A stretch of 20,975 nt of DNA from a virus (Duplodnaviria; Heunggongvirae; Uroviricota; Caudoviricetes), in IMG/VR virus record IMGVR_UViG_2728369187_000006, positions 1 to 20,975 of that record, one strand, 5' to 3'. The first letter of the stretch is position 1, and every line of letters begins with the position of its first letter. The translations under genes and the position numbers were made by a program. Shown one piece after another: positions 4,836-16,981 of this stretch. Under the pieces are notes generated by a model that worked only from the letters and a program-made list of their open reading frames with translations, was not told the origin of the DNA and did not search any database.

Positions 4836-5295
4836 TTACCACCCCACCAGCCTCTTTAAACCGGGCAATCAGGTCACCGATTTTATGTTCATACTGACCG
4901 TAACCAGCACCCGGCAAAGAAGCCCAGATATTACTGCAACGGTCGATTGCCTGCCGGATATCGCCGCGATCAATCATAGGTAAAGCGCCACGCTCTTTAA
5001 TCTGCTGCAATGCCACAGCATCCTGGCTTTTTGGAGAGAAGTCTTTCAAGCCAAGCTGCTTACAATAAGCATCCCACCAGCGTGAAAGAATCTGATAACG
5101 ACCAGCTGCTGTTGATTTAAGTTTCGGGTTTAGTGTGACAAGTTTGCGAGGATGATCGGAGTAATCAGTGAATAGTTCGCCTCCGACAATAACGTCATAA
5201 CCGTAGTTACATGTCGGTTGCCGTCCGTTATCCGTTCCTTCTGACCATGCCACCATATCGAGGAAAGCTTTACGCTGGGAATTTAGTACCTGCAT
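4819..5295 (-). CDS. R: Endolysin, lambda R-type lytic transglycosylase
   Basis: 158 aa, near-identical from memory to lambda R (QRKAFLDM.AWSEGTDNGRQ...GYDVIVGGELFTDYSDHPRKLVTLNPKLKST.AGRYQ.LSRWWDAY...). Confidence 0.93.
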   Translation of the reverse strand: MQVLNSQRKAFLDMVAWSEGTDNGRQPTCNYGYDVIVGGELFTDYSDHPRKLVTLNPKLKSTAAGRYQILSRWWDAYCKQLGLKDFSPKSQDAVALQQIKERGALPMIDRGDIRQAIDRCSNIWASLPGAGYGQYEHKIGDLIARFKEAGGVVNEVEL

Positions 5296-5904: not shown

Positions 5905-7695
5905 ATGAGCACAGAATTAAAACTAAAGAAAATTATGGCATCGTCTAAAATTGAGCCATTTATTAGACATATTCGTTTTCCTTTTTTTAAAAACCTTGCA
6001 GAGGGTAGCAAGATTGATTTTGAGTATCCAATTACAGCATTAGTTGGTCAAAACGGAACCAATAAAAGTTCTGTTTTAAGAGCCCTATTCGGTTCTCCAA
6101 ACAACTATTCTCTGGGTAGCTTATGGTTTTCTACAGATGTAGATGAGATTAAAGATGGTGGTCGTTCTAGATTTATTTATGGATATTATGACAAAGCTAC
6201 TGATTCAATTGTTGAAGTAATTAAAACTCGAATCTCTAAAGAAAATGATCCTGATTACTGGGAACCATCCAGACCATTAAAATCCGACAACATGGCTCCA
6301 ATGCCTAGTACAAAAATCTCAACCAATCAACTAAGGACTAGGTGGAAAGCTATTGACAAAAATGTAATATATTTAGATTTCAGAGCAACTATCAGTGCAT
6401 TTGATAAGTTCTTTTATCACTCTGATTTTCATACATACCCTAAGAAAGATTATCTTAGAAAACGCAGTCAGATGCTAAAAGACATTATAGATAACGATCT
6501 TAAAAAATATCAACCTCATAAAGGAAAAAAAGACAAGCTATTTGTTAACACTTTATTAGAAAAAAGTAAGGTAGAGGCAATCAGCAAGATTTTAGGTCGC
6601 AAATACACAAGCATCCGCCTTATTGAACATAGCTTATTCACTAATGACAAAGCTCCCACAATTATTCTTCAATCAGAAAACTTAAAATATTCTGAAGCTT
6701 TCGCAGGCAGTGGGGAATTTGCTGTATCTATATTAGTGCATAAACTAATGGATAGCCCTGATGCATCTTTAATTCTGCTAGATGAACCTGAAGTATCACT
6801 TCACCCTTCTGCTCAATGTCAATTGATGGAATTTTTATCAGAACAAGCACTTAAAAAGAAACATCAAATTGTCATATCCACACATTCATCAACAATAGTA
6901 AAAGACTTGCCTAAAAATGCCATAAAATTATTCTGTCTGAATGATAAAATAGGAAAGGTTGATGTTCTTCAAAATGTCAGCCCAGAAGAATCTTTCTTTA
7001 TTCTTGGTGAACGCATTGATAAAAGAACCGTTATTGTAGAAGATCGGTTAGCGAAGAGGTTTGTAGAAAAGGCGCTTAAAGCGGGTGGTGAAGCATTATT
7101 AAACTCCTTCGAAGTAAAACATGTTCCTGGAGGAGCGGGAAGTATTCTTCAAACTTTGGCTGTGCCTTTATGTGTTGCCAATGTTAAAAACGTTATTTTC
7201 TTATTAGATGGTGACCAATCGAGAACTGATGATTATCCAACTTCTGATTCCATACCAGAAAATCAAAACACAAACCTTCAAAACATCATAAAAGAAATAA
7301 CCAATCAAGATATAAAATTTAGTTGTGATGGTTCTAATGGCTCATCAAATAACAATCAAAAATACAAAATGCAAAGAAATTTTATCGATTTCATCCACGA
7401 TAAAATTGCTTTTCTTCCTGTTTATACTCCTGAAGCATTTCTTATTGAGAATGTTCATGGTGATTATAAAGAATATAAAGATCAAATCCCCAAAAACATT
7501 CAAGATGCTAAAGAAATCACCAAAGAACTTTGTAAGTTAGACACAGGGTTGGAAAACGTTACCAGTGACGATATCTTTGAAACACAAATCAGAATTCTTA
7601 ATAAAATACCAAATAATCATGAAGTGTTAACAAAAACTCGAGAGTTGCTGCAAATCTTTTTAGATAATGATACTATCAGACCAAGAGTGAGGTAG
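5905..7695 (+). CDS. OLD-family-like ABC ATPase with putative C-terminal TOPRIM nuclease domain (cargo gene 1)
   Basis: 596 aa. Variant Walker A (ALVGQNGTNKSSVLRAL), Walker B with LHP (SLILLDEPEVSLHPSAQ) typical of AAA_21/OLD ATPases, then TOPRIM-like motifs (TVIVEDRLAKRFVE, glycine-rich PGGAGS, DxD-like FLLDGDQ). AT-rich. Family assignment is by eye, not by HMM. Start may instead be ATG 5935. Confidence 0.7.
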   Translation: MSTELKLKKIMASSKIEPFIRHIRFPFFKNLAEGSKIDFEYPITALVGQNGTNKSSVLRALFGSPNNYSLGSLWFSTDVDEIKDGGRSRFIYGYYDKATDSIVEVIKTRISKENDPDYWEPSRPLKSDNMAPMPSTKISTNQLRTRWKAIDKNVIYLDFRATISAFDKFFYHSDFHTYPKKDYLRKRSQMLKDIIDNDLKKYQPHKGKKDKLFVNTLLEKSKVEAISKILGRKYTSIRLIEHSLFTNDKAPTIILQSENLKYSEAFAGSGEFAVSILVHKLMDSPDASLILLDEPEVSLHPSAQCQLMEFLSEQALKKKHQIVISTHSSTIVKDLPKNAIKLFCLNDKIGKVDVLQNVSPEESFFILGERIDKRTVIVEDRLAKRFVEKALKAGGEALLNSFEVKHVPGGAGSILQTLAVPLCVANVKNVIFLLDGDQSRTDDYPTSDSIPENQNTNLQNIIKEITNQDIKFSCDGSNGSSNNNQKYKMQRNFIDFIHDKIAFLPVYTPEAFLIENVHGDYKEYKDQIPKNIQDAKEITKELCKLDTGLENVTSDDIFETQIRILNKIPNNHEVLTKTRELLQIFLDNDTIRPRVR

Positions 7696-7698
7696 ATA

Positions 7699-8739
7699 AT
7701 GGCTAAAAAGATACACGTTTACGATTTCTTTTCCGGCTGCGGCGGAACCAGTGTAGGCCTAAAAGCGGTGGGAATGGAAATTATTTTCGGTTTAGATATT
7801 GATCTAGACTCCGCTAACACCTTTAAAATGAATAATCCATTTGCACATTTTATCAATGGTGATATCAAAGATACACACGTTGAGGAAATTAAGCATCTGG
7901 TTTGTGCGTCAACACAAAGCAAAGCTCTAACCCTATTTTGTGGTTGTGCTCCATGTCAACCATTCTCGAAACAAAATAAAATACGGAACGAGGATGATCC
8001 GAGAAAAGATCTGCTTACTGAGTTTGCACGGTTTGTCTCTTATTATACGCCAGACTTTGTACTGGTAGAGAATGTACCAGGAATCCAAAATGTCGATATT
8101 AACAATGGAAATTTCCAGAAATTTCTTGAGGTTTTAGCACATCATCACTACAACGTTGATTTTGGTGTGATTCCTGCGTTGTGGTTCGGGGTTCCTCAAA
8201 CACGTGAACGTTTTGTTTTACTGGCGTCAAAACACACGAATATTAAGCTTCCATCACAAACTCATGATGGATTAAAAACTCCGTATGCAACTGTCAGAGA
8301 CTGGATCGGCGGATTACCTCCTATTGCTGCCGGTGAAACTCATAAAGATGTTATGGATCATACAGCAGCCAAACTATCTGATCTAAATATTAAACGTATT
8401 AAAGCGACTCCTGAAGGAAAAGGTAGAGAATCTTGGCCTGAAGAACTTATACTAAAATGCCATAAAAAATATAAAGGGCATACTGATGTTTATGGACGGC
8501 TTTCTTGGGACAAACCAGCAAGTGGATTAACAACTAGATGTATAAGCTATTCGAATGGACGTTTCGGACATCCAGAGCAAGATAGGGCTATTTCTGTTAG
8601 AGAGGCTGCGTTATTACAGACTTTCCCATTAGACTATTCCTTCACAGGCTCTTTAGTCTCGAAAGCCAAACAGATAGGGAATGCAGTCCCTCCCAAGATG
8701 GCTGAAGCTCTTGGAAGGGCTATCATCGCATCACTTTAA
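7699..8739 (+). CDS. DNA (cytosine-5)-methyltransferase (cargo gene 2)
   Basis: 346 aa with canonical m5C motifs: I (FSGCGG), IV (PCQPFS), VI (ENVPG), VIII (QTRERF), X (GNAVPP). Starts 4 nt after the upstream stop, with GAGG inside the upstream gene end, so likely translationally coupled. Confidence 0.9.
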   Translation: MAKKIHVYDFFSGCGGTSVGLKAVGMEIIFGLDIDLDSANTFKMNNPFAHFINGDIKDTHVEEIKHLVCASTQSKALTLFCGCAPCQPFSKQNKIRNEDDPRKDLLTEFARFVSYYTPDFVLVENVPGIQNVDINNGNFQKFLEVLAHHHYNVDFGVIPALWFGVPQTRERFVLLASKHTNIKLPSQTHDGLKTPYATVRDWIGGLPPIAAGETHKDVMDHTAAKLSDLNIKRIKATPEGKGRESWPEELILKCHKKYKGHTDVYGRLSWDKPASGLTTRCISYSNGRFGHPEQDRAISVREAALLQTFPLDYSFTGSLVSKAKQIGNAVPPKMAEALGRAIIASL

Positions 8740-10946: not shown

Positions 10947-11336
10947 TCAGGCGGCTGCACCCGCCGTTTTCTCGTACTTACTGATAGTGATCTCGACCTT
11001 CCCTCCCGGGATAACCGGTCCCCACTCCACCAGCATTCTTTTCACCTGACTGTCGTCTTCCCACACACCCGCGTGGGTCAGGGCGTCAAACAGCGCCTTG
11101 TTATAGTTGTCCAGATCGCGGATCCGGTTATCCGGAGGAAACAACACGATCTCCACTGAAGCAGGTGCCGACGTTGGTTTCGGCAGACGACGTAACTGCT
11201 CAACTATTGCTGCGCACGCCGCGCTCTGGAATTTTCGCCCCGCCGCGCTTATCAGACTCTTACCAGCAAACGCCCCTTTGTTGGGGTGTCGCCAGTACGT
11301 GTTCACGCTGGGCGGGAAAGGCAAGATCAGCTTCAT
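10947..11336 (-). CDS. rusA: Holliday junction resolvase RusA
   Basis: 129 aa, MKLILPFPPSVNTYWR...DLDNYNKALFDALTHAGVWEDDSQV is the RusA signature; typical nin-region gene. Confidence 0.88.
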   Translation of the reverse strand: MKLILPFPPSVNTYWRHPNKGAFAGKSLISAAGRKFQSAACAAIVEQLRRLPKPTSAPASVEIVLFPPDNRIRDLDNYNKALFDALTHAGVWEDDSQVKRMLVEWGPVIPGGKVEITISKYEKTAGAAA

Positions 11337-11659
11337 ACTTTCAGGCCTCTCTCATGTAACCAGTGGGCTGCACGCAGCCTGGCGTTTTCCTCACCGGCAA
11401 GCAGTGCGCGGATAATCCCGACCGCCTCGCTGTCGTCGTCCTTCACCGCGGTATGAAGCGTTATCCCCCGGGCCACGCCACGCTTTATCGTGATGACGCC
11501 TTTTTTCTCCAGTGCACGAAGATGCTCTACCGCTGCATTCACTGAACGGTATCCCAGCATGGTTGCCACCTCCTGATTGGTTGGCGGAAAGCCACGCTCT
11601 TTCTGGTAAGAAATCAGCATATCCAGCACCTGCTGCTGGCATTGAGTTAACGTCGTCAT
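11333..11659 (-). CDS. LexA DNA-binding-domain-like protein lacking the S24 peptidase domain
   Basis: Start taken at the internal ATG 11659..11657, which overlaps the upstream TGA as ATGA. LTQCQQQVLDMLISYQKERGFPPTNQEVATMLGYRSVNAAVEHLRALEKKGVI resembles the LexA N-terminal winged helix. Only about 108 aa, with no Ala-Gly/Ser/Lys protease module. Confidence 0.65.
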   Translation of the reverse strand: MTTLTQCQQQVLDMLISYQKERGFPPTNQEVATMLGYRSVNAAVEHLRALEKKGVITIKRGVARGITLHTAVKDDDSEAVGIIRALLAGEENARLRAAHWLHERGLKV

Positions 11660-12309
11660 GCCGCCATCTCCCTGACCAGTTTTTCCGCCTGCTGGCAAAC
11701 CTGCACCAGAAAGGCTTCACCACATGCCTCAAGTTCATCGCGCCCGATGTAGCTGATTGCCGGTCCCTTCCAGGTCTTGTCGAAAACAGCAATAGCACCA
11801 GCGAAGAAAGCGCCTGTCGGCACCTGCTTCTCATCCTTCGGGATAAACCAGGCAGGCAGTTCAAAACCAATACGCCCGCGAATAAAAGCAATATGGTCCG
11901 CATCTTCCGGCCACCACACTTCGCTGGTGGCAGCTTTGATCAGGAAAACATAGCGCCCGCCCTTATCACGCATGGCACTGGCATGTTTCATGATGTAACG
12001 CATGCCGGTGATGTATTGCCCCTCATGCTGACTGGCGCGGCTGTATGGGGGATTACCAAAGGCAGCACCTTTAAGCTCCGCAAGACGTTCTGACCAGTCA
12101 TGCGCCAGCGCGTTATCTTCCGCCGTGTAATACGCGGCACATTTGGCGTTATCACCGTCAGTAAACAGATCCAGAACAAACGGGCCAAACAGGGTGTTAA
12201 TTCCCCAGAAAATGTTGTCCGGCGTGCGCCACTGATCGCCCACTTCCTTCAGTTCATGGGCTGGTTTGTTCCGCAGTTCCACCAGCGCCTGGCAATATTT
12301 ATTACTCAT
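11656..12309 (-). CDS. Phage N6-adenine DNA methyltransferase (Dam-like)
   Basis: NPPY motif (AAFGNPPYSRA) and overall resemblance to phage Dam MTases. Start at ATG 12309..12307 overlaps the upstream stop (TAATG); the ORF-track start at 12342 is less likely. Confidence 0.8.
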   Translation of the reverse strand: MSNKYCQALVELRNKPAHELKEVGDQWRTPDNIFWGINTLFGPFVLDLFTDGDNAKCAAYYTAEDNALAHDWSERLAELKGAAFGNPPYSRASQHEGQYITGMRYIMKHASAMRDKGGRYVFLIKAATSEVWWPEDADHIAFIRGRIGFELPAWFIPKDEKQVPTGAFFAGAIAVFDKTWKGPAISYIGRDELEACGEAFLVQVCQQAEKLVREMAA

Positions 12310-12803
12310 TAAGCCCCCACGTAATTCCCTGACAGATACCACTCTTCACCCGATGCAGCGCGCTTGCTGCTTTTCCGTAAGCACCGCTCACGACGCGCCA
12401 GAAAATTGTTTCGTTCTGGCTGGGAGTGGCTTTCACGGAATGCCGCCATCCACACGGTTGCAGCACGACGGTATAAGCCCCTGGACTCCAGTTCTTCAGC
12501 CTGGCGGGTCAGGCACAAAATCACCCGGTGATCGTTAGTGCCGACATAGAAATTGCGCACAGGTCTGGTTTCACGAACTGGTTGTGGTTCCGGCTCCTGC
12601 GCTCTCTCAGTCAGGCGCGGGAAATGTCTGCGTGTATCCCCTTCACAACGGTGAGCCACACGCCCACTCTGACGTAACTTGCTTGCTGACTGCAGAACGC
12701 GCTGCCGTGAGTAACCTGCAAAAGCATCCGCAATGTCTCCGGAAGTACACCCCGGATGGGCTTCAATGAATTTCTGAACGTCATTTAACAGACTCATGAT
12801 CAC
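12309..12803 (-). CDS. Hypothetical regulator with PerC-like C-terminal motif
   Basis: 164 aa. C-terminal AEELESRGLYRRAATVWMAAF...RRERCLRK resembles PerC-family activators from memory. Occupies the slot where lambda has the helicase loader P. ATGA overlap with the upstream initiator gene. Confidence 0.5.
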   Translation of the reverse strand: MIMSLLNDVQKFIEAHPGCTSGDIADAFAGYSRQRVLQSASKLRQSGRVAHRCEGDTRRHFPRLTERAQEPEPQPVRETRPVRNFYVGTNDHRVILCLTRQAEELESRGLYRRAATVWMAAFRESHSQPERNNFLARRERCLRKSSKRAASGEEWYLSGNYVGA

Positions 12804-13750: not shown

Positions 13751-14089
13751 CTATTTCCCTGAATTTACGACGAAACTGTTCGAGCGGACTGAAGCACTCA
13801 TGCTCATAGCCTTCGCGGAGGTAGATAACCCGTTGTGTTTCCGGTTCCCAACGAATGACTCTGACGGGCACTCCGTAGTGATCTTTGAACCAGCGGTTAA
13901 CTTGTCGCAAAGGACTGTCTCCTTCTGCCGGTTGAAATCACCCACAGCCCACTCTGCAAAGCTGTGGGTTACAATTTCCCTGTCACCTGGTACATTTACT
14001 GCATAGCAATACTCCACCTTCGCTTTTCCACCCGGTACAGGAAGCGCAATCAGTTGCGAGCGACGGTAGTGTGTTGTTAAACTGTTCAT
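13751..14089 (-). CDS. Hypothetical protein, apparently frame-disrupted, or two small overlapping genes
   Basis: The 112-aa ORF is protein-like for its first ~55 aa, then turns Ser-rich and low-complexity. Another frame over 13746..13931 reads as a convincing protein ([59 protein letters not shown]), with AAGGAG 8 nt before an in-frame TTG. An 8-bp hairpin (13941..13968) sits at the junction. Confidence 0.35.
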
Positions 14090-14649
14090 GCGTTAGTTTC
14101 TCCACAGTCACGACACGCCACGGCGCCCGGAGCTGCACACTCGCGGGCGTCATTACTTTCTGAAATGCAAAAGATTTTGTAGACCAGTGCTGCATGCTCC
14201 TGCAGCTTCGAAATTGAGAGATATAGCTCGTCGTTAATTGCTGTTTTCTCATGCGGTTCCACTACACCGTCTTCGATTGCTGAACGAATCTGTTTTGAAT
14301 AACTGCCGATCTGTTCAATGACTTCCAGCAGACGCTGGTTAATATCGGCGTTGTCCACATCCTCGACGTCAGGAAGAGACACAAATACGCCATTTGCAGA
14401 CTGCGCCACAGCATCAGCAATGAAGTGAGTGCCACCAGCACGCTGTAAAACCATTGCCCATCCCAGCGGAAAAATCTGATCGCCATCTGCACGAAGGCGG
14501 TTGAATAAAGCGTTCTCTGTTACATCCAGCCAGTCAGCCGCTTCAGCGTAACCACCCGGCAACGCCGCGATAGTTTTTCTGACAGCTTTCACGTACCACT
14601 CAGGCTGTTTTTCTATTTTCCAGTGATGCTTACCCACGATTAGCCTCAT
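14086..14649 (-). CDS. CII-like / YdaT-like phage regulatory protein
   Basis: 187-aa ORF directly downstream of the cro-like gene, as in cI-cro-cII and racR-ydaS-ydaT arrangements. Family assignment is from memory and position only. Confidence 0.6.
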
Positions 14650-14680: not shown

Positions 14681-14881
14681 CTAATCTTTCGGATAGATAT
14701 CCGGTCTTAAGTCAGATTTCGTAATTGCACCTGACGTGCATTGCTCAAGTTTTTTAGCCAGCACAAAACTGGCTTTTTTATAGCCATTGAAAACCAGCCG
14801 TAAGTAGCCAGGTGTTGAGCCAACTTTTCCGGCCAACTCGCCCTGCTGTTCTTTGGTTAAAGAGTCCCAATACGCTTTCAT
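14681..14881 (-). CDS. cro: Cro-like HTH repressor
   Basis: Small HTH protein (QGELAGKVGSTPGYLRLVFNGYKKAS) divergent from cI. Start at ATG 14881 is preferred because GGAGG lies 8 nt upstream; the ORF-track start at 14905 lacks an RBS. Confidence 0.75.
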   Translation of the reverse strand: MKAYWDSLTKEQQGELAGKVGSTPGYLRLVFNGYKKASFVLAKKLEQCTSGAITKSDLRPDIYPKD

Positions 14882-14971
14882 ACAATATGTACCTCCGGTG
14901 TACATATTACATGATTAAAATGAACCTTCAAGATACTTGTACCTTAACGGTACAAGGGTTTTAATTTCGTT
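14882..14971. promoter_or_regulatory. Immunity control region (OR-like): two palindromic operators plus divergent pR-like and pRM-like promoters
   Basis: Palindromes ATGTACCTCCGGTGTACAT (14887..14905) and CTTGTACCTTAACGGTACAAG (14936..14956). Minus-strand TTGAAG-N16-TAATAT upstream of cro; plus-strand TTGTAC-N17-TTAATT ending 5 nt before the cI ATG (near-leaderless). Confidence 0.65.
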
Positions 14972-15646
14972 ATGAAAACAATCCATGACATCCGGCGGTC
15001 TAACGCCAGAAAACTGAGAGATGGTGTTGGCGGGAATTCTTCCTTTGCCACTATGATTGATCGCGAGCCAACCCAGACCAGCAGGTTTATGGGAGATGGT
15101 GCTACTAAAAATATCGGTGACAGCATGGCACGACACATCGAAAAATGTTTCGACCTGCCTGTCGGATGGCTCGATCAAGAACACCAGACAACCAACATCA
15201 CAAAAAAACCTGATGTTTCAATCACTAATAAACAAATCACATTAGTCCCTGTCATATCATGGGTACAGGCCGGAGCATGGAAAGAAGTTGGATATTCTGA
15301 GGTTGATTTGAGCACAGCAGAAACGTATCCCTGCCCTGTACCCTGTGGGGAAATGACTTATATCTTGCGGGTGATAGGTGATTCAATGATTGATGAGTAC
15401 CGCCCGGGAGACATGATTTTTGTCGATCCTGAAGTACCTGCCTGCCACGGTGACGACGTTATTGCATTGATGCACGATACAGGTGAAACCACCTTCAAAA
15501 GGTTGATAGAAGATGGGACACAGCGTTATCTCAAAGCGTTAAACCCAAACTGGCCTGAGCCTTACATTAAGATCAACGGTAATTGCTCTATAATTGGAAC
15601 TGTGATTTTCTCAGGAAAACCAAGAAGATACAAAATCAAAGCCTAA
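14972..15646 (+). CDS. cI: cI-like repressor (N-terminal DNA-binding domain plus C-terminal S24 LexA-like autopeptidase)
   Basis: 224 aa. C-terminal S24 features: Ala-Gly cleavage-site candidate (WVQAGAWK), Ser nucleophile context (VIGDSM), downstream Lys. Divergent from the cro-like gene across the operator region. Confidence 0.85.
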   Translation: MKTIHDIRRSNARKLRDGVGGNSSFATMIDREPTQTSRFMGDGATKNIGDSMARHIEKCFDLPVGWLDQEHQTTNITKKPDVSITNKQITLVPVISWVQAGAWKEVGYSEVDLSTAETYPCPVPCGEMTYILRVIGDSMIDEYRPGDMIFVDPEVPACHGDDVIALMHDTGETTFKRLIEDGTQRYLKALNPNWPEPYIKINGNCSIIGTVIFSGKPRRYKIKA

Positions 15647-15658
15647 TCAATGTTTATG

Positions 15659-15682
15659 AACCTGCTTCGGCAGGTTTTTTTA
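15659..15682 (+). terminator. Rho-independent terminator after cI
   Basis: ACCTGC-TTCG-GCAGGT stem followed by a run of 6-7 T. Confidence 0.75.
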
Positions 15683-15685
15683 TAC

Positions 15686-15720
15686 TTGACAATGTACCCT
15701 TGAGATACATAATGTACCTA
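15686..15720 (+). promoter_or_regulatory. pL-like early-left promoter with overlapping operator repeats (OL-like)
   Basis: TTGACA (15686..15691), 16-17 nt spacer, CATAAT/ATAATG (15708..15714). AATGTACC repeats at 15691..15698 and 15711..15718 share the TGTACC half-site seen in the OR region. Confidence 0.65.
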
Positions 15721-15817
15721 AGAGAAACAACAAACAGGCAGGACGCCCACGAAGTAGCCGCCGGTGGCGTATGAATGACCGGATGATTCGTTAAATACTA
15801 TGTGTAAGAGAGCGCAA

Positions 15818-16021
15818 ATGAACCGTTATTTCACATGCTCGTTTTGTGGCGCAAACGAGCTGCAGGCAAAAAAAATCATCGCCAAAGGCGGAAAAGATGA
15901 AGTTGCTATCTGCTCTGAGTGCGTAGTCTTGTGTGTCGGGGCATTAATCAATATCAGCACAACTATTCAGTTCACACCAAATGAGAATGCGCCTTTAGAT
16001 GCGCGGAAATCTGGAGGTTAA
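15818..16021 (+). CDS. Small protein with ClpX-type C4 zinc-binding-domain-like motif
   Basis: MNRYFTCSFCGANELQAKKIIAKGGKDEVAICSECVVLCVGAL aligns by eye with the E. coli ClpX N-terminal ZBD ([31 protein letters not shown]), including all four Cys. AAGAGAG RBS upstream of ATG 15818. First gene downstream of the pL-like promoter. Confidence 0.65.
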   Translation: MNRYFTCSFCGANELQAKKIIAKGGKDEVAICSECVVLCVGALINISTTIQFTPNENAPLDARKSGG

Positions 16022-16029
16022 AGAACAAA

Positions 16030-16305
16030 ATGAAAGTCCAGATTTTAAACAATAGTGGTGAAGTCGTTTGGTCATACGACATAGCCGCTCCTGTAGATCA
16101 GAGCGGCGATAGCTGGACCAATGGGAAACATCAGATTATGGCTGGAGTTGTGTTCTCTTTACGCCGTGCTTTAGAACAGGCTGAAGTCTTTCCATCAGAC
16201 CCTGAATGGAAATGGCCTTTTTCTATTTGTCCAAATTCGGAGAGTACATTTCAGAAAATTGGTCAGAAAGTCGCACTCGAAGAGCATCAGCCAACTGTTT
16301 CCTGA
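16030..16305 (+). CDS. Hypothetical protein (early-left operon)
   Basis: 91-aa ORF with a strong GGAGG RBS 8 nt before the ATG. Its 3' end overlaps a convergent minus-strand ORF, so the true C-terminus is uncertain. Confidence 0.55.
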   Translation: MKVQILNNSGEVVWSYDIAAPVDQSGDSWTNGKHQIMAGVVFSLRRALEQAEVFPSDPEWKWPFSICPNSESTFQKIGQKVALEEHQPTVS

Positions 16306-16468
16306 TTTTTTCAGGTAACTCGTCGGCATCGCAGAAACAACAACGCTCGATCATGTTGAAAGCCGATTCGTAGAACTGTTTTTGCTGAGTGTCGCTGAGA
16401 CAGGAAAAGAGCGACGTTACGATGATTTTATTAATTGCATTATCAAGTTCTTTTTCATCAAAAGTCAT
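16223..16468 (-). CDS. Hypothetical small protein, convergent and overlapping the previous gene
   Basis: 81-aa ORF with AAGGAAAA RBS upstream of its ATG and a protein-like sequence including a CCFC motif. Conflicts over 83 nt with 16030..16305; one of the two may be mis-called. Confidence 0.4.
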   Translation of the reverse strand: MTFDEKELDNAINKIIVTSLFSCLSDTQQKQFYESAFNMIERCCFCDADELPEKIRKQLADALRVRLSDQFSEMYSPNLDK

Positions 16469-16724
16469 TTGATTTTCCTTTTATGTATACGGGCTTAAAA
16501 GGATACCACCGAGCCTGAAGTGGTGAAAAGACAGGCACATAACAGCTAAGTATTTTCAACCAGAGAGAATCCTTAGCGTTGTGGTGAATGCGGCTCAGCG
16601 CACGCGGGTTAAGGTTGAGGCTGACAGTCGACCTTCTGTGGATACCCACCCGCCTGGTGTGCAACCTTCGCCAGGCACCGGGAGGCACCCGGCACCACAA
16701 CTTTATGCTGTGTGTAGTCTTGGC

Positions 16725-16770
16725 GGTACCAGCTTGTACCCTTGCTTCCGGCTGGTACCGTCCTTTTTAC
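16725..16770 (+). terminator. Candidate intrinsic terminator / structured element in early-left non-coding region
   Basis: 9-bp stem GGTACCAGC / GCTGGTACC (16725..16733 and 16751..16759) with a 17-nt loop, followed by GTCCTTTTTAC. The loop and stem carry CTTGTACC and GGTACC, the same half-site as the operators. Confidence 0.4.
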
Positions 16771-16981
16771 AAAACAGAGAAGAGCATCACCGGACGACGG
16801 GCTCATAACCCAATCCATCCGGGCGGCTGCCACCGCAGGTGTTCTTCTCTGTTTTGTGGAGAAACTAACCGCCCCTACGGGGGCATTTATGGAAATGTAA
16901 TTGACTCAATAATCGCCGGACGGTGAGGGCTTCCTTTTACCCGAATTCAACGCGGTGCAGTGCATATACGTGGAGAACAAA

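Follow-up and report, generated by a model that had tools for sequence, protein, structure and literature searches.

What does a phage gain from a zinc-binding domain of the ClpX type that has no motor attached, and that is encoded by the first gene of its early-left operon? The question is raised by a short gene in the window, by which we mean the whole stretch of 20,975 nucleotides analysed here, and which is a lambdoid prophage of the SfV type. SfV-type prophages that are 99.7% identical in this region sit at tRNA-Thr, next to proA, in complete E. coli genomes. A sequence-only reading of this DNA had claimed a 67-aa open reading frame, which is present and translates into MNRYFTCSFCGANELQAKKIIAKGGKDEVAICSECVVLCVGALINISTTIQFTPNENAPLDARKSGG. 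We regard the ATG at 15818 as the real start, since a Shine-Dalgarno-like sequence lies 5 nt upstream and the N-terminus MNxY[YF]TCSFCG is common to all four subtypes of the family described below. The ribosome-binding regions upstream differ among the four subtypes although this N-terminus is kept. An in-frame ATG at 15800 was rejected as the start, as it is unconserved. The gene and its parts are:

15818–16021 (stop included), plus strand: gene for a 67-aa stand-alone ClpX-type zinc-binding domain (ZBD) protein
15806–15812, plus strand: Shine-Dalgarno-like AAGAGAG, 5 nt 5′ of the ATG, read from the sequence
15818–15967, plus strand: conserved ZBD core, residues 1–50, delimited by invariant alignment columns, the ClpX alignment and pLDDT
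15836–15838, 15845–15847, 15911–15913 and 15920–15922, plus strand: putative zinc ligands C7, C10, C32 and C35, invariant in the family
15968–16018, plus strand: variable C-terminal tail, residues 51–67, predicted to be disordered

We find that the product is a genuine C4 zinc-binding domain of the ClpX type, one that stands alone and has no motor. The zf-C4_ClpX profile (PF06689), named earlier as the check to be made, matches residues 6–40 with 41.4 bits (gathering cut-off 27, E 1.3e-10), and the other subtypes score 26.2–40.3 bits against the same cut-off. The likeness to the ClpX ZBD, which had been claimed by eye, is borne out by BLASTP against E. coli ClpX (the ClpX sequence used being identical to PDB 8e91_A residues 1–61), with 16 identities in 33 residues (48%, E 3e-8) between phage residues 7–39 and ClpX 15–44, both sequences being C4 zinc ribbons of the form CSFCG...ICxECVxLC. 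In this alignment C7, C10, C32 and C35 of the phage protein pair with C15, C18, C37 and C40 of ClpX (numbered from Met1), and the fifth cysteine of the ClpX ZBD is likewise conserved and aligned. A PDB sequence search with the phage protein returned ClpX as the only matches. Unlike ClpX, the phage protein is free-standing, with neither linker nor AAA+ module; the absence of the latter, also claimed before, is upheld by the length of the product and by the ClpX unfoldase models NF003745 and TIGR00382, which score 25.8 and 22.7 bits, far below their cut-offs of 359 and 371, with matches confined to the first ~45 profile positions. NCBIfam gave no match beyond the ClpX N-terminus, the PADLOC defence-system models matched none of the subtypes, and no family other than zf-C4_ClpX was found for the protein in the Pfam, NCBIfam and PADLOC searches. 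In RefSeq the gene is called 'ClpX C4-type zinc finger protein', and in PHROGs it belongs to phrog_5259, function unknown. The domain is thus a known one, here in a divergent form that stands alone, and the protein has already been annotated automatically. The searchable literature, outside which most subscription journals lie, yielded no work on a phage ZBD that occurs by itself.

The predicted fold agrees with this assignment. In the AlphaFold2 model residues 1–50 have a pLDDT of 74–89 with a helix at 33–49, and the tail (51–67) is disordered with a pLDDT of 44–50. The model has the treble-clef-like order of beta-hairpins followed by a helix, and superposes on ClpX ZBD structures alone, with a target-normalised TM of 0.80–0.84 and an rmsd of 1.4–1.7 Å; the best match is 2ds8_B (target-normalised TM 0.84, rmsd 1.4 Å, probability 1.0), and the next fold after the ClpX ZBD in this structure search reached a probability of only 0.08–0.2. 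The CxxC...CxxC ligand pattern is present, with a spacer 3 residues longer than in ClpX, and the protein presumably binds zinc. It probably also dimerises as the ClpX N-terminal domain does.

The gene had further been placed first in the early-left operon, and the surrounding layout agrees: the cI terminator is followed by a promoter that matches 11 of 12 consensus positions and carries half-sites like those between cI and cro, then by the open reading frame, and this synteny is kept in ~80 loci.

14086–14649, minus strand: CP76-type cII gene
14681–14905, minus strand: cro
14972–15646, plus strand: cI-type LexA/S24 repressor gene (Pfam Peptidase_S24, E 1.5e-26)
15658–15677, plus strand: intrinsic terminator 3′ of cI, an 8-bp stem followed by a T run
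15686–15713, plus strand: PL-like early-left promoter, TTGACA-16-CATAAT, 11/12 consensus positions matched
15693–15698 and 15713–15718: TGTACC operator half-sites overlapping the PL-like promoter
16030–16305, plus strand: second gene of the operon, a homologue of SfV orf33 (phrog_3195, function unknown in PHROGs)

The cI of the window is 99% identical to that of SfV, whose annotation also marks a terminator after cI, and the TGTACC half-site recurs in the cI–cro intergenic palindrome (14936–14956). A leader of ~100 nt separates the PL-like promoter from the ZBD gene, and the orf33 homologue is followed by a convergent small gene, an HD 5′-deoxynucleotidase gene, two small genes, xis and int. 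The convergent gene (phrog_3311, 16223–16468, minus strand) overlaps the orf33 homologue by 83 nt (16223–16305); neither has an assigned function, and the two are kept together in most loci. Beyond them, ~400 nt (16470–16870) hold no credible open reading frame and are 98% identical to an SfV intergenic region. SfV orf32 and orf31 (YfdQ/DUF2303) are missing from the window, with a junction near 16869–16871, and in near-identical prophages RefSeq marks a frameshifted pseudogene in the region matching 16470–16870.

As the reading that we place first, and only tentatively since we would give it well under an even chance, we suggest that the free ZBD acts as a soluble decoy for the docking step of ClpXP. 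After infection, or upon loss of the repressor, the early-left promoter would fire and the ZBD protein would be made immediately and in quantity. The free domain would then compete, as a soluble protein, for the docking step by binding adaptor tails or N-domain-dependent degrons, and its partners could be adaptors of the SspB, RssB or UmuD type, substrates of the lambda-O or MuA type, or some protein of the phage that bears a degron of this kind. Both the high early expression and the binding to ClpXP partners are what we would expect from the promoter and the domain, and the 11/12 promoter together with the good Shine-Dalgarno sequence fits the stoichiometric excess that a decoy needs. The domain and fold match the ClpX ZBD only, and to our knowledge every known partner of this fold is part of the ClpXP delivery network.

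Published biochemistry lends this mechanism some plausibility. The E. coli ClpX ZBD on its own, when supplied in trans, inhibits the RssB-mediated breakdown of sigma-S by ClpXP in vitro (PMC7226468), so that a ZBD without motor has already been used, in recombinant form, as the kind of competitor that we propose for the phage protein. It differs in being the host's own domain, and it was effective in vitro at 5–20 µM against 0.6 µM ClpXP (PMC7226468), an 8- to 33-fold excess that counts against the decoy. The ClpX ZBD is required for degradation of lambda O (PMC7804408), and a hydrophobic patch around F16 and I46 is reported there, by citation of earlier work, to serve this degradation, with SspB, RssB and trigger factor docking on the same hydrophobic region (PMC7804408). 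The equivalent of F16 in this adaptor and substrate patch, F9, is invariant across the phage family; the equivalent of I46, A42 in the window, varies but is mostly small or hydrophobic. In the searchable literature we found no natural free ZBD acting as a competitor.

One objection to the decoy is the distance between the phage domain and that of the host. With the E. coli ZBD as reference, Listeria ClpX scores 63.9 bits, Neisseria ClpX 39.4 and the phage protein ~24; it has thus diverged further than the ClpX domains of other phyla and is not a recent capture of host clpX. The family has its own 3-residue loop insertion (AKGGKDE against AGPS in ClpX; KGGKDE against GPS for the loop itself), and in the third strand VYICDEC of ClpX reads VAICSEC in our alignment, with Tyr replaced by an invariant Ala and Asp by a near-invariant Ser. 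After the last cysteine, where ClpX has the acidic helix NDIIREEIKE, the phage protein has the neutral, hydrophobic VGALINISTT, and for this reason it may have lost the docking surface. The earlier description of the protein as a mimic of ClpX therefore holds in so far as it is a free-standing ClpX-type ZBD, and fails, on the bit scores, the loop insertion and the substitutions, in so far as it implied a copy of the host protein.

An exhaustive protein search over 1.8 billion representatives gave 154 relatives, of which members of the prophage family itself come nearest, followed by short single-ZBD proteins and proteins with 2–4 tandem ZBDs, not by full-length ClpX. The top match, P0016 (2505 aa, 22 'stretches'), was discarded as a translated tandem repeat containing AICSEC, its rank being an artefact of summed scores. 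Domains of the PF06689 type are also seen in many architectures other than ClpX: in sigma factors, in tandem arrays, and fused to an aspartate carbamoyltransferase-like protein. The fold is therefore a general module, and this, with the strong divergence and the substitutions at positions conserved in ClpX, makes a ClpX-independent zinc ribbon the explanation that we rank second: the treble clef may have been reused for another protein or nucleic acid, as a regulator of lysis and lysogeny, an anti-repressor or a take-over factor that does not act through proteolysis. In keeping with it, the first early-left genes of related phages encode diverse small proteins such as Kil and orf33. Against it, the protein matches no other family, and its near-neutral sequence offers neither an arginine-rich surface nor one obviously suited to binding nucleic acids. 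We consider this explanation possible and place it a little behind the decoy.

The tandem relatives also bear on the explanation that we rank third, in which the phage domain would heterodimerise with the ClpX N-domain or sit on the ring, and either block it or retarget it through its variable tail, as a modulator resembling an adaptor or anti-adaptor. The ClpX ZBD is described as a dimerisation domain in two papers (PMC7804408, PMC7226468), and distant relatives that are mostly tandem ZBDs would be expected if ZBDs pair with each other. The combination of a conserved N-terminal ZBD with unrelated tails or helical extensions would likewise suit a docking part joined to variable cargo-binding parts. 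On the other hand, the tail of the window's protein is short and predicted to be disordered, and the helix after the last cysteine is strongly unlike that of ClpX. ClpX moreover carries three tethered ZBD dimers at a high local concentration, and easy exchange with a free domain would not be expected. Taken together these points make such a module unlikely in our view.

What selection has acted on, and where the gene is found, helps to narrow these choices. Across 80 IMG/VR loci and deposited phages we found four subtypes, of 67 aa (that of the window), 61–63, 112 and 121 aa, with an overall range of 57–121 aa. Residues 1–50 are common to all four, and the C-terminal tails are unrelated. For the C-terminal extension of the 112-aa Salmonella subtype, the AlphaFold2 model had a pLDDT of 59, too low for a fold search. 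The long unrelated extensions of the 112- and 121-aa subtypes would be superfluous for a simple decoy and speak against it. The core is under purifying selection: between subtypes its synonymous sites are saturated, dN is 0.16–0.28 and dN/dS 0.10–0.25, as the decoy would lead one to expect, and 14 residues, the four ligand cysteines among them, are invariant.

The same figures argue strongly against a decaying or functionless moron, as does the conservation of position across genera. Such an explanation could point to the gene being an optional cassette and to the frameshifted alleles, and we hold it to be very improbable. About 5 of the 80 loci are frameshifted; in five (L048–L052, IMG/VR) the ZBD gene has lost 1 nt close to its start and with it the first two cysteines, which shows that the gene is dispensable in some prophages. 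SfV keeps cI, terminator, promoter, leader and orf33 without the ZBD gene, and has 45 unrelated bases in place of the following segment, which is an optional cassette:

15793–16027, plus strand: 235-bp ZBD cassette, delimited by pairwise alignment and BLAST break points against SfV

A homologue was found in only 3 distinct deposited phage records, and among 5426 complete E. coli genomes only 85 have the gene together with its flanks. This dispensability, as shown by SfV, by the frameshifts and by the small number of records and genomes, also weakens the decoy.

Its place is the same in every locus (~80), with the immunity region on one side, the HD phosphatase gene on the other, and the ZBD gene first after the leftward promoter. 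The upstream promoter and operator regions fall into at least eight unrelated types; the repressors are 100%, 82%, 41% or 34% identical or undetectably related, some of them not of the S24 type; and the downstream genes vary as well. The 313-aa initiator of the window, a replication protein, is shared by about half of the ZBD-positive loci, to which this comparison was confined, and not by the rest. When one genome per species was scanned, just one locus came up, in Enterobacter; the homologue there (49% identical) is the first open reading frame after a LexA-like repressor. As the first position is kept behind at least eight unrelated immunity types, a partner that varies with phage immunity is unlikely, and in view also of the Enterobacter homologue a constant partner, most simply the host, fits better. 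This immediate-early position, kept behind so many unrelated repressor and operator sets, is an argument for the decoy. The at least eight different repressors, including non-S24 ones, argue against a repressor-specific partner for a ClpX-independent regulator, and the idea of an anti-repressor was set aside on this ground. Prophages with another immunity type, such as that of E. coli ECCHD184 (L003, 3001–3891), have an opposite-strand gene for a BRCT-domain protein after the repressor and before the leader and ZBD gene, which is where lambda has rexAB.

The left recombination boundary of the cassette coincides with the end of a conserved structured RNA, which opens the early-left transcript:

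15729–15792, plus strand: conserved structured leader RNA of 64 nt at the 5′ end of the early-left transcript, recognised by covariation
15729–15734 paired with 15787–15792, plus strand: P1, a 6-bp closing helix
15761–15765 paired with 15778–15782, plus strand: P2, a 5-bp hairpin with a conserved 12-nt loop

The invariant core of the leader is GGCAGGACGCCCACGAAGUAGC. The window holds one copy, and the leader is nearly invariant behind at least eight unrelated promoters, with different first genes after it (ZBD, orf33, Kil and others). It is present in many lambdoid phages, and we find it in temperate phages of Escherichia, Shigella, Salmonella, Yersinia, Pectobacterium, Pantoea, Klebsiella and Aeromonas. 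The motif also occurs in T5-like (Demerecviridae) virulent phages of Providencia, with compensatory changes in both helices. In Providencia phage PSTCR5 (L093, 580–652) it is followed by a boxA-like CGCTCTTTA, and in vB_PreS_PR1 (5191–5230) it lies inside an annotated repeat_region.

In a covariation test on the two helices in 13 diverse copies, 92.3% of cells were paired and 10 of 14 pairs had changed on both sides; none of 500 shuffles reached the real value, and slid controls gave 22–43%. The structure is seen only through such comparative data, MFE folding of the whole leader being no better than that of shuffles (z 0.15). Rfam had nothing over the whole window at gathering thresholds and nothing overlapping the leader at E<=10. 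A covariance model built for the leader scores 91 bits on the window and has no match at E<=10 on HK022 (putL, putR) or HK639 (annotated putL-like), and by eye the leader shares just short strings with put RNA. A literature search with the leader sequence found nothing relevant. As the leader comes at the very beginning of the early-left transcript in phages that have no N, it may have a cis-acting role in processivity or antitermination, and we regard it as a candidate new cis-acting element of early transcription.

The ZBD gene had been said to sit where lambda has N. As to position this is right, both genes being first in the early-left operon, and where the lambda transcript has boxA and boxB, this one opens with a conserved, different and larger structured RNA. 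Functional equivalence does not follow: the two proteins show no similarity, the ZBD gene is an optional cassette in this phage group, and Pfam finds no N-like domain in the product, which also has no arginine-rich motif. One could still imagine the ZBD protein as a replacement for N, an antiterminator acting on the adjacent leader, but only its position, first after PL and directly 3′ of the leader, would favor this. The leader is kept in SfV, ZF40, YeP1, mEp237, pAEv1818 and others that have no ZBD gene, and the Enterobacter homologue comes first after its repressor with no such leader. We consider the chance that the protein replaces N to be slight.

We return to the decoy as the preferred explanation, for which other phages provide precedents of a kind. 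Lambda encodes cIII, an inhibitor of FtsH, in its early-left operon, and phages block Lon as well as FtsH. The phage ZBD would be a functional analogue of cIII, aimed at ClpXP. T4 PinA and T7 gp4.5 inhibit Lon, and lambda RexB inhibits ClpP-dependent degradation (PMC10286901). Like the proposed decoy, cIII, PinA, gp4.5 and RexB are small proteins by which a phage protects labile proteins against a protease of the host; they have no relation to the phage ZBD in sequence or fold, and none of them copies a domain of the protease that it targets. The anti-adaptors IraD, IraM and IraP are closer in mode of action, as small proteins that block delivery of substrates to ClpXP by binding RssB, although they are host-encoded and have unrelated folds. 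IraD and the ClpX ZBD have been proposed to use a common site on RssB (PMC7226468). Our search of the literature found no natural inhibitor made from a piece of a protease's own recognition machinery, and if the decoy reading is true, no earlier natural case of a 'domain decoy' for a bacterial AAA+ protease would precede this one, which would also be a ready tool for dissecting ZBD-dependent proteolysis in vivo.

ClpXP sets the stability of lambda O, MuA, sigma-S, UmuD′, LexA fragments and antitoxins. We speculate, and consider it rather doubtful, that through the ZBD as its very first product the phage reprograms the targets of ClpXP during the decision between lysis and lysogeny, such that substrates delivered by adaptors or dependent on the N-domain are stabilised and quality control of the ssrA type is spared. 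If the protein is a decoy or a docking module, a new route of host take-over would be revealed, and a genetically encoded probe of 67 residues would tell which ZBD-dependent substrates matter in phage development. If instead ClpXP is left untouched, the zinc ribbon would be a general interaction module, which bears on the many unannotated proteins with single or tandem ZBDs.

Some C-termini encoded in the window may offer weak leads to phage substrates of ClpXP. That of cI reads KPRRYKIKA (15620–15646), which we take to resemble the basic C-terminal ClpX tag of MuA, RRKKAI, and the RusA-like and Dam-like proteins (10947–11336 and 11656–12342) end in AAA and MAA, like tags of the ssrA type. We point out, finally, that the otherwise minus-strand late/Q region contains two plus-strand genes (5905–8739), which encode a 596-aa AAA_15/AAA_21 (AbiEii/OLD-like) ATPase and a 346-aa C-5 cytosine DNA methylase, and that this pair looks like a moron, possibly a module for defence or modification.
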